In this document: positions 9,735-45,176 of the stretch, one piece after another
Layout of the letters: every line of letters begins with the position of its first letter
Numbering within the stretch: position 1 is the first letter of the stretch
From: Podarcis filfolensis
Lineage: Eukaryota
Strand: one strand, 5' to 3'
Assembly (NCBI GenBank): GCA_964270895.1
Contig: OZ185450.1
Length of the DNA stretch: 64,000 nt
Notes under the pieces: generated by a model
What the model saw: the letters and a program-made list of their open reading frames with translations, nothing else
Told to the model about the DNA's origin: nothing
Databases searched by the model: none
Program-made: the position numbers and the translations under genes

Positions 9735-10440
9735 GGGGAGGGCTGTAGCTCAGAAGAGTAGATGCCTTAGAAGCAGAAGATCCCAGGTTTCATCCCTGGT
9801 GTTTCCAAGTAGGGCTGGGAAAGACTCATGCCAAAAACTCTGGAGAGCTATTGCTCAGTCAGTGTAGACCAGGGGTCAGCAAACCTTTTCAGCAGGGGGC
9901 TGGTCCCCTGTCCCTGATACCTTCTGGGTGGCAGGACTATAAGCCATGCCCCCCCACGACTCTCCCCTCCCTTCTCCACAGCATCGGACGAGCCCTGGTG
10001 GCTGCTTACGAGCACCAGGGACGAGCCCCGGTGGCTGTCTTACGAGCAGCAGGGGCTGGCGGCGGGGGCGGGACGATGAGCGGTGCACGAAAGGGCTCCG
10101 GGGAGGGGCTGCTTAAAATGGCAGCTGCTCGAGCTCTGCTGCTGCTGGCACCAACAAAGCCCAGCCCCCTTCCTCCTCTAGGCAGGGTGGGGAGAAGCCA
10201 GGAGGAGGGAGAGAGGAGGAGGCACCGCCACCGCCATGTGAGGGAGAGGGAAAGAACACACGCACTGGCGATCCATGTGGCGATTCCTGGTCTGTCCGCG
10301 GGCCGGATCCAGAAGGCACTTGGTCCTGATCCGGCCTGTGGGCCTTAGTTTGCCGACCCATGGTGTAGAAAGTACTGAGCTATGTGAACTAATGGCTTGA
10401 CTCTGTATAGCTGTATAGCAGCTGATCATCCTATGTTCCC
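9735..10440 (+). mobile_element. tRNA-derived SINE (Squam3-like) split by a hAT insertion
   Basis: Head at 9735-9869 and tail at 10363-10440 rejoin to match the uninterrupted copy at 32042-32229. Confidence 0.7.
9870..10362. mobile_element. Non-autonomous hAT (Charlie-like) element, about 490 bp
   Basis: TIR CAGGGGTCAGCAAAC / GTTTGCCGACCCATG; 8-bp TSD GTGTAGAC/GTGTAGAA; GC-rich interior. Confidence 0.85.
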
Positions 10441-22316: not shown

Positions 22317-22414
22317 TGAAGGCGGCGTCTTCAAAGCTCACCTTACTTTCCCAAAGGACTATCCACTCAGGCCGCCAAAAATGAAGTTTATCACAGAAAT
22401 ATGGCATCCAAATG
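22317..22414 (+). CDS. UBE2G1: UBE2G1 coding exon 3
   Basis: tttttccag|TGAAGGC...CCAAATG|gtaaga; 98 nt, [32 protein letters not shown] (E2 HPN motif); phases join exons 2 and 4. Confidence 0.97.
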
Positions 22415-23809
22415 GTAAGACGCTGATGTCATGTGTAAAGTGTGGTGTTCTGTCTTGCATCTGGAATGAATATGAACTAAGTTGAGAGCCCCAATTTTGG
22501 ATAATGGGAAATTATTAGGAAGGAATGTAAATATTTGGGTTCAGGGAAAAAAAAATACTTTGGCTGGTTTCTGTGTCTTTCCTTTAACTGTAGGTATGAT
22601 ATATTGGCCACGGGTGATATACAACATAAACTACCGCTCAAGATTGTTGTTAAAATACATGCATACCACCTTTATCTCCTTGGAGGAAATGTGGGATATA
22701 AATGCAGCAATAAAATTATTAAAATATTGGTTAGGTATCATCCATGTGACAGTTGGGTGATTAGGCTCTCAGTACACTGCTTGCATACAGTCTAATATAG
22801 AAAATTAGGTAGTATTTTAAATTTGTAGTGTGGAAACTGGAATTTTAAGCCTCATCTGACTCTGGATAACTTAGTTTCTTTGGATTATTTAGTTATTTAT
22901 TAAAATAATTCATATTTTATGCCTTTCATTTTGAAAAGAAATTCCAAAGTGATCCACAAACAAAACAACTAAATATCACAACAAAACAACTAAATAAAAC
23001 CAAGTTAAAATGTCAGCCACAGAAGCCAGGAGTGCCAGGAGCCAGTATTTATGGTCAGAGAAATGCCTTGAGTACATTTTCAATTTTCAGTGGAAACTTT
23101 GAGATCATTCCACAAGATAGATGCCACAATGGAGAAAGCTGTTTTTCTCTCCACTGTAAGATGTACATCTGCACACTGTGAAACAATGAATAGGGCCTCC
23201 TTTACTGGAACCTGTTTTAGTATTAGCCTCTGTTCCCCATTTTTAAAATGGAAATAATTGTGTATTGGATTACACAGCAGTTGCCATAGTCAACTAACGG
23301 CACACTTCTACTGGTGTATTTTGAAGATAAAGATAATTAGCAGTGGTGAATTGCAGTTTCCAGTTTAGCTGGTGGATCCATATATTGTGAATGTAAGCAG
23401 AGCCTTACTGGATTGGATCAAAGGTCCATCTGTTTCAACTTGCCCTTCCCAAGAGCCAGACAGATGCTTCCACAAACAGGGCATGAACATCACTGATAAT
23501 CATTGATATGTTTATCCTCCCCTAGCTAACATTCATCACCACATCTTTGGGCAGCAAATTCCATATATTAACTAGTTGTGAATCCTATTGTCAGTCAACT
23601 GAATCTTGCTCACTATTAACACTTGTACTCCATGTTTCTGACAAATATTCCTATTAATGTTATCCTTAATAGTTGGGTGGAATTGATGGCCATAGCAGAG
23701 GACAAAACTCTCCAGCAGCCTCACTACTTTGCTTTTCATTGTTATCTGAAGACAGGACTTGTGCTACAATGTTAAGGCTCTGAAATTCTATTTTTTTTCT
23801 TCTTGGTAG

Positions 23810-23988
23810 TTGATAAAAATGGTGATGTCTGTATTTCCATCCTTCATGAACCTGGTGAAGACAAATATGGCTATGAGAAACCTGAAGAACGCTGGCTTCC
23901 CATCCATACTGTGGAAACCATAATGATTAGTGTAATTTCTATGCTGGCAGATCCCAACGGTGACTCTCCTGCTAACGTTGATGCAGCG
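23810..23988 (+). CDS. UBE2G1: UBE2G1 coding exon 4 (catalytic Cys and acidic loop)
   Basis: cttggtag|TTGATAAA...GCAGCG|gtatga; 179 nt, VDKNGDVCISILHEPGEDKYGYEKPEERWLPIHTVETIMISVISMLADPNGDSPANVDAA; carries the Ubc7/Cdc34-type acidic insertion after the active-site Cys. Confidence 0.98.
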
Positions 23989-24287
23989 GTATGACTTGCA
24001 GCTTGTAAATAAATCTCTTCCCAGCATTACTGTTGAAATACCGTGGAATGGTTTCACGGCACACAGCTTTATCCCATTAAGATGACTTTTTAGTAATAAA
24101 AGGGACAGGAGTTGAACAAATGTAATGTGGTCATGGTATAATTTCAAGTGTAATAGGAGTCTCTCCCTATTTTGCTGTCCATATTCAGAGGTGACCAGCA
24201 TCTCTGGATTTTTTTAAATAAGCAGCCATATTTGTAATCTTTTTTTCTTAACTGTGTGAACAATAACAGGCATGTATGTAATAAATA

Positions 24288-33420: not shown

Positions 33421-34088
33421 AATGGAATTCAATGGGATACTACAAAGAATGTAGTATTCCTTCTTCCCAATCTGGAAAATATTAGGATTGGATAGCATAT
33501 TAAAGATCTAGACAACTCTTGGCACAATCAAAACAAATTTTAGGTAGTCATGTTGGCCACTAGGAAAAATGAAAATGCAGTAGCAGCATCATACTTCCTG
33601 TGAGGACTAATAATCCTCACAGTTCACTGAAACTCTGAACTTGGGTTTGCTCCTTTTCAATCTTACTTTGGTCCTAATGTAAAGTTCTACTGTAGTGTTG
33701 CTTTTGGATTTTGGCAAATGCCACAGAGGCCCAAGTCTGTAATAAGAGACATAATTAGTAGTGTAGTCTGTATGCCTACACAGGAGTAAGCTCCATTGAG
33801 TTCGGTGGGACTTATTCTCAGGTACATAAAAGGATTGCAGTGTTTATCAGAAACCCTTTTTCTTCCAGATTTTGTACTACTACAAAGGAGTGGAGATAAA
33901 TGTTTTAACACTTAATTGTTCTAATTTTTATTTTTCTCCATCGCTATTCCTGTTATTGGCACACAACTTACAAGTTTACAGAAAAGATTTTCTCTCTCCC
34001 CCCCCCCCCCCGTACAGGACAGGGAGAAGCAGAATTTAATTTTTACACACACAAAAACAACATGTAAAGACTTGGTCTATATGCAAAT

Positions 34089-34384
34089 TTTATTATTCTG
34101 TTTCTAAAACCAATCCAAAGTTACTTAAAAAACGGAGGTCAACAGCACACAACATTAACTCCACCAAGGATTCAGGGCTCCCTGCATGTCAGGTCTGTGG
34201 TGGCTTGAAGACTCCTCCTTGCAGGGCTTCTCTTCTCTCACATCACTCCCAGGTTCATCTGCTTTCTGTCGCTCGGGGCCTTTCTTTGGGAGTATCTACC
34301 TTCTTGTGCTTCTCACTGTGGATTATTCTCTGTTCTTTCCTGTCCCTGTCTGTGGCTGTCTGGAGACCTAACTCTCGCATGCTC
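34089..34384 (-). pseudogene. RBMX2: Disabled 3' coding tail and 3'UTR of the RBMX2 retrocopy
   Basis: After the TAG (34387-34385) the frame continues EHARVRSPDSHRQGQERTENNPQ to a second in-frame stop TGA (34315-34313) in R/S/E-rich sequence. Minus-strand AATAAA at 34094-34089. Confidence 0.6.
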
Positions 34385-35074
34385 CTACTTAGACTCCCGT
34401 TCATGTTGTGCCCAGCTTGCATGTTTGTGCCCAGATGTGCTACTCCAGATCTGCTGACTCGCATTGGCATTCCATTCATACCTTGGGTCTTCCTTCTCCA
34501 CTTTGATCTTGGTTTTAGGAGGCGAGTCTGCAAGCTGTTCCTCTTTCACCCGTTTTTGGTGCTCTCTTTTCTCTTTCTTCTCCTTGCTTTTCTCTTTTTT
34601 GTGTTTCTTTACCACCACCTCACTGTCTTTGGGGGACTCTGGTGAACTTGGAGGTGTTTTAGCACCACATCCTCTTTCTCGGAGCGCTTTTGTCACATCA
34701 TCAATATCCTCGGAGTCTTTCGGTGGGCGGTAGTTAGCCACATGGTCCACACGAATTGTCCTTCCTTTAATCTTTATTCCATTAAAATTATCAACCACAA
34801 GAATGGTGCTTCTCTGATCTTCATAGCAAATGAAACAGAAGCCTTTGGATTTCCCTGTCTTCTTATCACGCACCAGATTTATGTTCACAATTTCCCCATA
34901 CTGTGAAAACACACAAACAATGTCGCCTTCCGTCAGCTCATAGGGAAGACCACCCACAAACACCCAAGCACTGTCACTGTACTCTGCATGCCAGGAGACC
35001 TTATCTTGTACACCAAGCTGTGCCTCACGCTCATTCAGCTCATTGATCAGCTTCACTTTGGTTAGTGGATTCAT
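34385..35074 (-). CDS. RBMX2: Intronless RBMX2 retrocopy ORF (229 aa; intact RRM, truncated tail)
   Basis: MNPLTKVKLINELNEREAQLGVQDKVSWHAEY...GGLPYELTEGDIVCVFSQYGEIVNINLVRDKKTGKSKGFCFICYEDQRSTILVVDNFNGIKIKGRTIRVDHV is unmistakably RBMX2 (Snu17/Ist3 family). It is continuous, without the introns of the vertebrate parent gene. Whether it is expressed is unknown. Confidence 0.9.
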   Translation of the reverse strand: MNPLTKVKLINELNEREAQLGVQDKVSWHAEYSDSAWVFVGGLPYELTEGDIVCVFSQYGEIVNINLVRDKKTGKSKGFCFICYEDQRSTILVVDNFNGIKIKGRTIRVDHVANYRPPKDSEDIDDVTKALRERGCGAKTPPSSPESPKDSEVVVKKHKKEKSKEKKEKREHQKRVKEEQLADSPPKTKIKVEKEDPRYEWNANASQQIWSSTSGHKHASWAQHERESK

Positions 35075-35350
35075 GCTGGTTCTCTTCGTCTATTGTGTGC
35101 AAAAAAAGAAAAAGAAAAGAAAAAATATTTTTAAAACACTCATAAAAATTTACTGACCTTTCAAAAGCCCCGTTAGGTAGCAAATGCATTTACACTTCTG
35201 TTATGGCAGCGGAGTGGCCATGTGTTCTAATTTACAGAAGGCAGCCTTCTCTTTTCTCTCTTTTATTATTACTTATTGCACACCCCTCAACCTAAGGTCC
35301 CTGGGTAGATTGCAACACAATACTGTATTAATATTAAAGCACAATATTTA

Positions 35351-35693
35351 GGATGCGGGTGGCGCTGTGGGTTAAACCACAGAGCCTAGGGCTTGCCGAT
35401 CAGAAGGTAAGCAGTTCGAATCCCCGTGACGGGGTGAGCTCCCATTGCTCCGTCCCTGCTCCTGCCAACCTAGCAGTTTGAAAGCACGTCAAAGTGCAAG
35501 TAGATAAATAGGTACCACTCCGGCGGGAACATAAACGTGCGCTGCTCTGGTTCACCAGAAGTGGCTTAGTCATGCTGGCCACATGACCCGGAAGCTGTAT
35601 GCCGGCTCCCTCGGCCAATAAAGCGAGATGAGCGCCACAACTCCAGAGTCGATCACGACTGGACCTAACGGTCAGGGGTCCCTTTACCTTTTT
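35351..35693 (+). mobile_element. Full-length Sauria SINE
   Basis: tRNA-like head ggtggcgctgtgggttaaacc...ggttcgaatccc, (CCTTTA) tail, 10-bp TSD ACAATATTTA. Confidence 0.9.
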
Positions 35694-35714: not shown

Positions 35715-35880
35715 AGTATCGGACTACAGCCTGGAAGGCCACAGTTCAAATCCTAGCTCAGCTAGGAAGCTCAACCTGAGTGGCTTTGGGCCAGTCCCTG
35801 CCTCTCGGCCTACCTCACAGGGTTGGTGTGTTGAGGTTAAAAATGAGGGCGCGGGAGGACCACGTACGCCACCCTTGAGT
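35715..35880 (+). mobile_element. MIR-like CORE-type SINE remnant
   Basis: gttcaaatcc...ttgggccagtc...cctacctcacaggg core; related copies at about 36610-36760, 51300-51520 (-) and 59355-59531. Confidence 0.6.
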
Positions 35881-36236
35881 ACATAAAATAAAAATATGCT
35901 CAGAGAGGCACTTTGGCCATGGCCTCGCTTTTAAAAGCAAGACAAAACTTCCTCTCCAGTCAGAGGTGGTGGTACTCTGCACGTGCTCAGAGGCACATCG
36001 CCCTCGGGGCGGGAAAGGAAGACCTCGGAGAAGAACGCGCGGTGTAGAACTGTTCCTTCGAAACCCGAATTCGGTCCTCCTGCAGCTTCTTCCCAGCGGC
36101 CATAACTTCAGCCCAGTCAGGAAGGCTGTGCCGCTACTGCGCGCGCGCGCGCACCGCCTCCTTTTCTCTCCTCCCCCCTCCCTCCCCGACCCACCCCGCT
36201 CTATCTCGCCCCTCCGCCTCCCGCTCTCACCTCAGG

Positions 36237-36246
36237 TCTCGCGAGA
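36237..36246. promoter_or_regulatory. Palindromic CGCG element TCTCGCGAGA (BANP/ZBTB33-type motif)
   Basis: Exact match TCTCGCGAGA ending 28 nt upstream of the ANKFY1 ATG. Confidence 0.75.
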
Positions 36247-36273
36247 GCTCCGAGGCAGCGGCCCAGGGCCAAC

Positions 36274-36283
36274 ATGGCGGAAG
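36274..36283 (+). CDS. ANKFY1: ANKFY1 (Rabankyrin-5) exon 1 coding part
   Basis: gccaacATGGCGGAAG|gtatgc, strong Kozak context; joins exon 2 to give MAEEEVAKLEKH. Confidence 0.9.
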
Positions 36284-36609
36284 GTATGCGCGATGCGGGC
36301 GGCGGCGGCGGCGGCGGCAATGCCAGCTGCACCTTGAGGAGCGGGAGGGTTTTTTCTCCCACCTCAGGCGGTTTTTCTGTGGGGCGGAGCGCTTAGCTAA
36401 CAGTGGTTTTGGTGCTGCTGGGTTGGTGCGGGGTGGGGGCAGATTGAAACCGGCTTGGAGGGCGGGGGGGGGAGTGTTTGGGCGTGCCTCGTTTATTTGT
36501 GTTAGTATTTTATTTAACTCTATTCCCTCCCGAGGAGATCGAGGCAGGATAGGTGGACCTTTTCCCCACCCCCGTCTTATATCCTCACAAGAGCCCTGGG
36601 AGGTAGGCG

Positions 36610-44983: not shown

Positions 44984-45176
44984 AAGAGGTGGCCAAACTG
45001 GAAAAACATCTGATGCTTCTCCGTCAGGAATATGTCAAGTTGCAGAAGAAGCTGACTGAGACGGAGAGGAAATGCACTCTCTTGGCCGCTCAGTCTAACA
45101 AGGAGAGTGCCAGCGACTCCTTCATCAGTCGGCTGCTTGCCATCGTAGCAGAGTTGTATGAGCAGGAGCAATACAG
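44984..45176 (+). CDS. ANKFY1: ANKFY1 exon 2 (N-terminal coiled coil)
   Basis: ctttgcag|AAGAGG...TACAG|gtaaac; 193 nt, EEVAKLEKHLMLLRQEYVKLQKKL...LYEQEQY. Confidence 0.96.

Follow-up and report, generated by a model that had tools for sequence, protein, structure and literature searches.

Based on the alignment of an intron-less RBMX2 copy from Podarcis filfolensis with its parent gene in the same genome, the sequence just upstream of the copy's start codon (a short leader, the AG that precedes it and the 3' half of a T-rich tract) comes from the first exon of the parent. The copied site was likely sharpened afterwards, by G-to-T changes and a longer tract. It is now likely the acceptor for an intron of 0.6-1.1 kb, across which the copy would be spliced to a non-coding exon whose transcription starts at the CpG-island promoter of a neighbouring gene. 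The candidate donors for this intron are 36231, 35688 (at the head of a SINE) and a weaker one at 35814, and splicing into position 35089 would remove the upstream ATGs below the donor used. We hold this combination, a selected retrogene with an inherited, sharpened candidate acceptor and a long intron to the neighbour's promoter, as a tentative reading, to which we give slightly less than an even chance. Positions without a contig refer to the window, the whole stretch of 64,000 nt that was analysed, and the features are collected in Table 1.

Table 1. Features in and around the RBMX2 retrocopy, in window coordinates.
Feature	Position	Strand	Evidence or remark
Rest of the parent's last exon, copied	34034..34384	-	homology ends near 34060; AATAAA at 34094; A-rich remnant at ~34043-34034
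Intron-less RBMX2 ORF (Snu17/Ist3-type RRM), 229 aa	34385..35074	-	ORF, family match, alignment to parent
15-nt leader, in frame with the ATG at 35074	35075..35089	-	13/15 identical to parent exon 1
Candidate acceptor TAG	35090..35092	-	parent has GAG here; Glu codon also in the P. lilfordi model P0125
Pyrimidine run, 25 nt, 22 T	35101..35125	-	ends 12 nt before the exon border
AT-rich stretch with 39 bases absent in the parent	35114..35155	-	alignment; short parent spacing also in P0125
15-mer holding the donor-like border 35158/35157	35156..35170	-	13/15 against parent C20:17784667-17784653
Dispersed SINE copy	35351..35692	-	9-10-nt flanking duplication; donor-like border 35688/35687 at its head
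CpG island, CpG o/e 0.81-0.94	35900..36499		promoter for the plus-strand neighbour and possibly for the retrogene
Donor-like border 36231/36230	36227..36233	-	top donor score on this strand of the island; intron length would be 1141 nt
First coding exon of the neighbour	36274..36283	+	ATG 36274, donor after 36283; joins in frame to exon 44984-45176

The retrocopy, its parent and its lacertid relatives

An RRM_1 domain was found in the ORF, and the matching database proteins carry RBMX2 names (an exact-match look-up of the copy's protein in a protein collection found none). The parent gene is made of six exons (C20:17779867-17784650), all five of whose introns are cleanly missing from the copy in the alignment of the two, and the copy lies on another contig, C15, so that they are unlinked. 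The ORF is a processed retrocopy of RBMX2, made via a fully spliced mRNA, and the retrocopy status proposed from the window alone is thereby borne out. Of 1271 31-mers compared, 75 also occur in the parent mRNA of the same genome. Codon 230 of the copy is a stop, where the parent has Tyr and continues to 279 aa, and the last 50 residues of the parent protein are missing from the copy; two 3-nt deletions both keep the frame, and frame-breaking indels occur solely downstream of codon 230. At the 3' end, homology stops ~25 nt past the parent's AATAAA and is followed only by a short A-rich patch. The parent's first AATAAA is broken in the copy by a 4-nt deletion (near 34082), and it is possible that the new AATAAA of the copy, where the parent has AATGAA, compensates for the broken signal. 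A search for a target-site duplication returned just 9-11-mers of low complexity that lie 60-90 nt beyond the 5' border, none of them convincing.

Over the first 489 nt, copy and parent differ by 22 silent and 5 replacement codons (dN 0.013, dS 0.258, dN/dS 0.05). Within the first 399 nt, 18 silent changes stand against 2 replacement changes, with 32 expected under drift of the copy (P ~5e-12, in a test that takes half of the silent changes as falling on the copy's branch). Judged by these codon differences, the retrogene is under strong purifying selection, acting on the RRM, which implies production of the protein now or until recently. The same stop is found in annotated proteins of Podarcis muralis, P. 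raffonei, P. lilfordi and Zootoca vivipara (all five members of one cluster). These RefSeq/UniProt models, named 'RBMX2-like' in the three Podarcis species and 'RBMX2' in Z. vivipara, are 93-95% identical to the copy and fall into one tree group with it; they are automatic annotation only and were compared as proteins. In the tree (13 rows, from which P0124, P0125, P0129 and P0130 were omitted), all five retro-type rows group together (86/79, below the starred level) within the lacertid group (100/95), which argues for a single retroposition among lacertids whose product was retained by selection on the RRM. Across the two clusters read, Z. vivipara has only a retro-type protein (226 aa, under the plain RBMX2 name) and Lacerta agilis only a parent-type one, a pattern that could reflect annotation gaps, or loss of the parent in one species and of the copy in the other.

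The contig that bears the parent, C20 (50.3 Mb), also carries a lone LRRC8-family match, which we take by synteny to be LRRC8A; the other eight of the nine matches to this family are found on C6 (four) and C2 (four). Other lacertids have their parent-type proteins on contigs of 47-51 Mb. In the lacertid Z, the chicken 4p/human X block is combined with chicken 17 genes, including lrrc8a (PMC6534595). On this synteny, the parent is likely Z-linked and the copy autosomal, so that the retroposition was likely a Z-to-autosome move. The case is like the mammalian out-of-X retrogenes in that a conserved housekeeping gene of the mammalian-X block was copied elsewhere and kept by selection; it differs from them in the chromosome that was left, the X in mammals but likely the lacertid Z, with female heterogamety, in the lizard. 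No excess of retrogene moves off the Z was found for birds or silkworm (PMC3242482).

The acceptor-like site and its origin

Read directly from the letters, the TAG, the 15-nt leader and the donors at 35158/35157 and 36231/36230 lie where the sequence-only reading had placed them. The TAG is a YAG that, with its tract, resembles a U2-type 3' splice site, and we treat it as a candidate. This site (35090) is the only one among the 2167 minus-strand YAGs of the window to have a run of at least 20 pyrimidines at up to 40 nt distance and free of an intervening AG, and 2/2196 have one on the plus strand; the tract at 35125-35101 is the longest before any of the 2167. From -20 to -4 the candidate has 12 pyrimidines out of 17 (the parent's homologous site has 10), a count inside the span of the five real parental acceptors (16, 16, 15, 11 and 12). 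There is no competing AG, the next one upstream of the TAG being at -51. The branch-point adenine usually lies at about -18 to -40; here, an A-run occupies -43 to -37, and no yUnAy is closer than -54. The TAG is also the stop of an upstream ORF of 17 codons (35143-35090, minus strand), in frame with the main ORF, which with the parent's GAG in this place would read into RBMX2.

Positions 35113-35070 match the parent's exon 1 (C20:17784649-17784606) at 37/44 bases. The alignment thus gives a parental origin to leader, AG and spacer as well as to 13 of the tract's 25 bases (35113-35101, the parent's T-run), the remaining 12 (35125-35114) having no parental match. Given the origin from a fully spliced mRNA, this match to exon 1 means that the site was untranslated exon at birth. 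The proposal of a newly gained splice site consequently falls, in the very way that the sequence-only reading had named as fatal to it: leader and AG, together with the tract's 3' half, derive from the parent's unspliced exon 1. The site is uncommon, and its rarity comes largely from parental inheritance and growth of the T-rich run.

On the intron side, copy and parent differ at five positions (three G-to-T, one T-to-C and one G-to-A). Two of the G-to-T changes are inside the tract and the third makes TAG from GAG, so that all three favour the acceptor; the other two differences are neutral for it. The P. lilfordi parent model P0125, which has an N-terminal extension, reads through the region like the parent in our genome, and, since the parental G's and the short spacing are common to two species, it was likely the copy that changed, by G-to-T substitution and by lengthening of the tract, with the qualification that the two parents compared are younger than the retroposition. 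Four more proteins were examined for datable N-terminal extensions, and none came from a parent both old enough and alignable. The 39 extra bases may be either an insertion in the copy or a loss in the parent. Upstream of them, the 15-mer match is displaced by 39 bases relative to the parent; random 100-mers reach it in 6/5000 cases (narrow test, 31 x 100 nt) and random 301-mers in 48/2000 (wider test, 111 x 301 nt), frequencies (0.1-2.4%) that refer to a window picked after the match was seen. The 5' end of the copied sequence is probably at this 15-mer (35170-35156), and the donor context at 35158/35157 probably descends from the parent. In contrast to the acceptor and, probably, to the donor at 35158, the borders at 36231 and 35688 are not of parental exon origin.

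Promoter access and candidate introns

The retrogene is head-to-head with a plus-strand gene, at 1.2 kb from ATG to ATG (i.e. less than 2 kb), which we take to be ANKFY1 (ANKFY1-like). A Pfam scan of 30 of the 66 plus-strand frames gave hits to ankyrin families in 2 of the 30, and a FYVE exon of the neighbour lies at C15:11858312. The island contains the palindrome TCTCGCGAGA at 36237-36246, a motif that we assume to be linked to BANP. Further along the plus strand, ubiquitin-conjugating exons at 22318-22413 and 23806-23997 presumably belong to UBE2G1; a GC-richer patch at 9850-10400, on a background of 38-42%, may be the first exon region of this gene. Single-piece, near full-length matches to the ubiquitin-conjugating family at C10:39799426-39799968 (minus strand) and C7:86181021-86181422 (plus strand), one of them with 2 stops, are possible further retrocopies.

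Close to the retrogene, the 200 bases before the leader have a GC content of 0.35 and a CpG o/e of 0.34, the island being 0.8-1.4 kb off, and a motif scan of 35000-35350 found no CpG island, TATA, CCAAT or GC box. An unspliced leader from the island would contain 11 ATGs downstream of 36231, plus a SINE, and a leader with that many upstream ATGs makes a poor message. The SINE, which we presume to be a Sauria-SINE, is 89-91% identical to its best matches among the loci compared and fairly young, and, standing between promoter and retrogene, it is a marker for dating the choice of donor.

Donors were ranked by a crude, hand-made count of U1 matches (not a trained model), in which 36231 scores 6.75 and 35158 scores 7.5; 43 minus-strand sites score at least 7, and neither donor is rare. 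Donor 36231 is only 43 nt from the neighbour's plus-strand ATG, so that its use needs a start site within the neighbour's first exon or intron. A divergent transcript normally starts left of the neighbour's start site, in which case 36231 would fall outside the transcript. A minus-strand ATG at 36275 overlaps the neighbour's ATG inside one palindrome, and 15 codons from it reach donor 36231 in phase 0, as an in-frame fusion to RBMX2. Splicing 36231 with this ATG would add 20 residues in frame, an extension carried by 0/5 retro-type protein models (from other species, where the site may differ), which counts weakly against this donor. A host gene with a targeting peptide begun at ATG 36275 was considered and dropped, the same bases being the neighbour's start and none of the five models being extended.

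The AT-rich, motif-poor upstream region, the 11 ATGs of an unspliced leader and the mammalian precedents discussed below together favour the long intron, and one running from the CpG island is plausible. Nearly as likely is a possible reading in which the site would be a relic from the 5' UTR of the parent, still unspliced, in a mono-exonic gene whose transcripts start near the ATG (at ~35170 or in the tract) with the help of the open chromatin of the neighbour's island; slippage would then account for the tract, and the TAG would merely end the upstream ORF. T-runs do lengthen and lose interruptions through slippage, and the look of an inherited site needs no splicing to explain it, which, like the weak branch-point consensus with no yUnAy near enough, weighs against the long intron. 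The parental leader, AG and half tract fit the relic as well, and the 15-mer at 35170 would mean that the copy includes the parent's whole 5' end. Most mammalian retrogenes are, moreover, mono-exonic (PMC4772013). The relic accords poorly with the lack of promoter motifs in the scan and with the fact that three of three G-to-T changes point to an acceptor; the parent's own promoter motifs lie upstream of the 15-mer, outside the copied part. Of the gained 5'UTR intron put forward in the sequence-only reading, CpG-island capture via a candidate 5' intron thus remains the likeliest part, whereas the newly gained site falls and a 68-nt version is unlikely.

This short version would run from the donor border 35158/35157 to the acceptor. 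As an intronization, positions 35157-35090 would be a real mini-intron: after Z-to-autosome retroposition, latent parental sites 29 nt apart would have become a working 68-nt intron through a gain of 39 bases and the three G-to-T changes, with a branch point less than 33 nt from the donor, a course of events that we regard as improbable. It has in its favour a good donor (13 minus-strand sites in the 64 kb, 0.2 per kb, score at least 7.5) combined with a YAG, the probably parental donor context, the removal of the upstream ATG at 35143 by excision, and the splicing of human introns of 43-65 nt described in bioRxiv 10.1101/784868. The geometry is against it: of the 17 adenines in the interval, 12 lie before the tract, 4-32 nt from the donor, and 5 at -9 to -2, with a single yUnAy at a distance of 15 nt from the donor, whereas the steric limit from donor to branch point is about 50 nt (PMC7969005). 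An intron of 68 nt is unlikely, given that no adenine before the tract lies more than 32 nt from the donor; the tract, a run of 25 nt, is also long, where SPF45-dependent short human introns have shortened ones (bioRxiv 10.1101/784868), and such an intron would leave the gene's access to a promoter unexplained. Less probable still is that the tract belongs to the insertion target site or represents the poly(A) tail that a retroelement left on the plus strand. The tract is A-rich on the plus strand and the 12 bases without parental match would allow this reading, but the alignment largely refutes it: the body of the would-be element is the parent's leader in antisense, which rules out a poly(A) remnant, and the 13 bases aligned to the parent's T-run agree with the earlier argument that this is no A-rich target site. 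Between 35141 and 35350, there is also no repeat match among the loci compared.

Relation to known retrogenes

Promoter capture, a new 5' exon and cryptic-site intronization are all known mechanisms, and retrogene intronization by way of cryptic splice sites from the parent is reportedly described in PMC3002245. Among the expressed retrogenes of mammals, 25-53% are multi-exonic, 75-93% of them via upstream exons; 11 human and 12 mouse retrocopies lie head-to-head with a gene less than 2 kb away, an arrangement in which promoters are shared (PMC4772013). Like HTR7P1 beside HEBP1, or NXT1 (PMC4772013), the present case has an intron-less copy less than 2 kb from the CpG island of a divergent gene and a candidate new 5' exon; it differs in being from a lizard, in being known from sequence alone, and in having its acceptor from the parent's UTR and not from flanking DNA. 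Silent cryptic parental splice sites become active in retrogenes (PMC3565874), and here too splice-like signals silent in a parent exon were likely strengthened in the copy. Unlike the intronization cases of that paper, only the acceptor is clearly parental, the donor of the likelier long intron would come from flanking DNA, and the splice is a candidate.

No account of the lacertid RBMX2 retrogene was found in the literature searched, although subscription papers and supplements may list it. Neither use of the acceptor nor traffic off the Z would alter a general rule. If the acceptor is used, the gene would be a reptile retrogene one half of whose 5' intron stems from the parental UTR and the other from the neighbour's promoter, a case traceable base by base in lacertid genomes. 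Whether or not it is spliced, the retrogene offers a testable instance of gene traffic off the Z, as a selected, likely autosomal copy of a spliceosome gene that is itself likely Z-linked.
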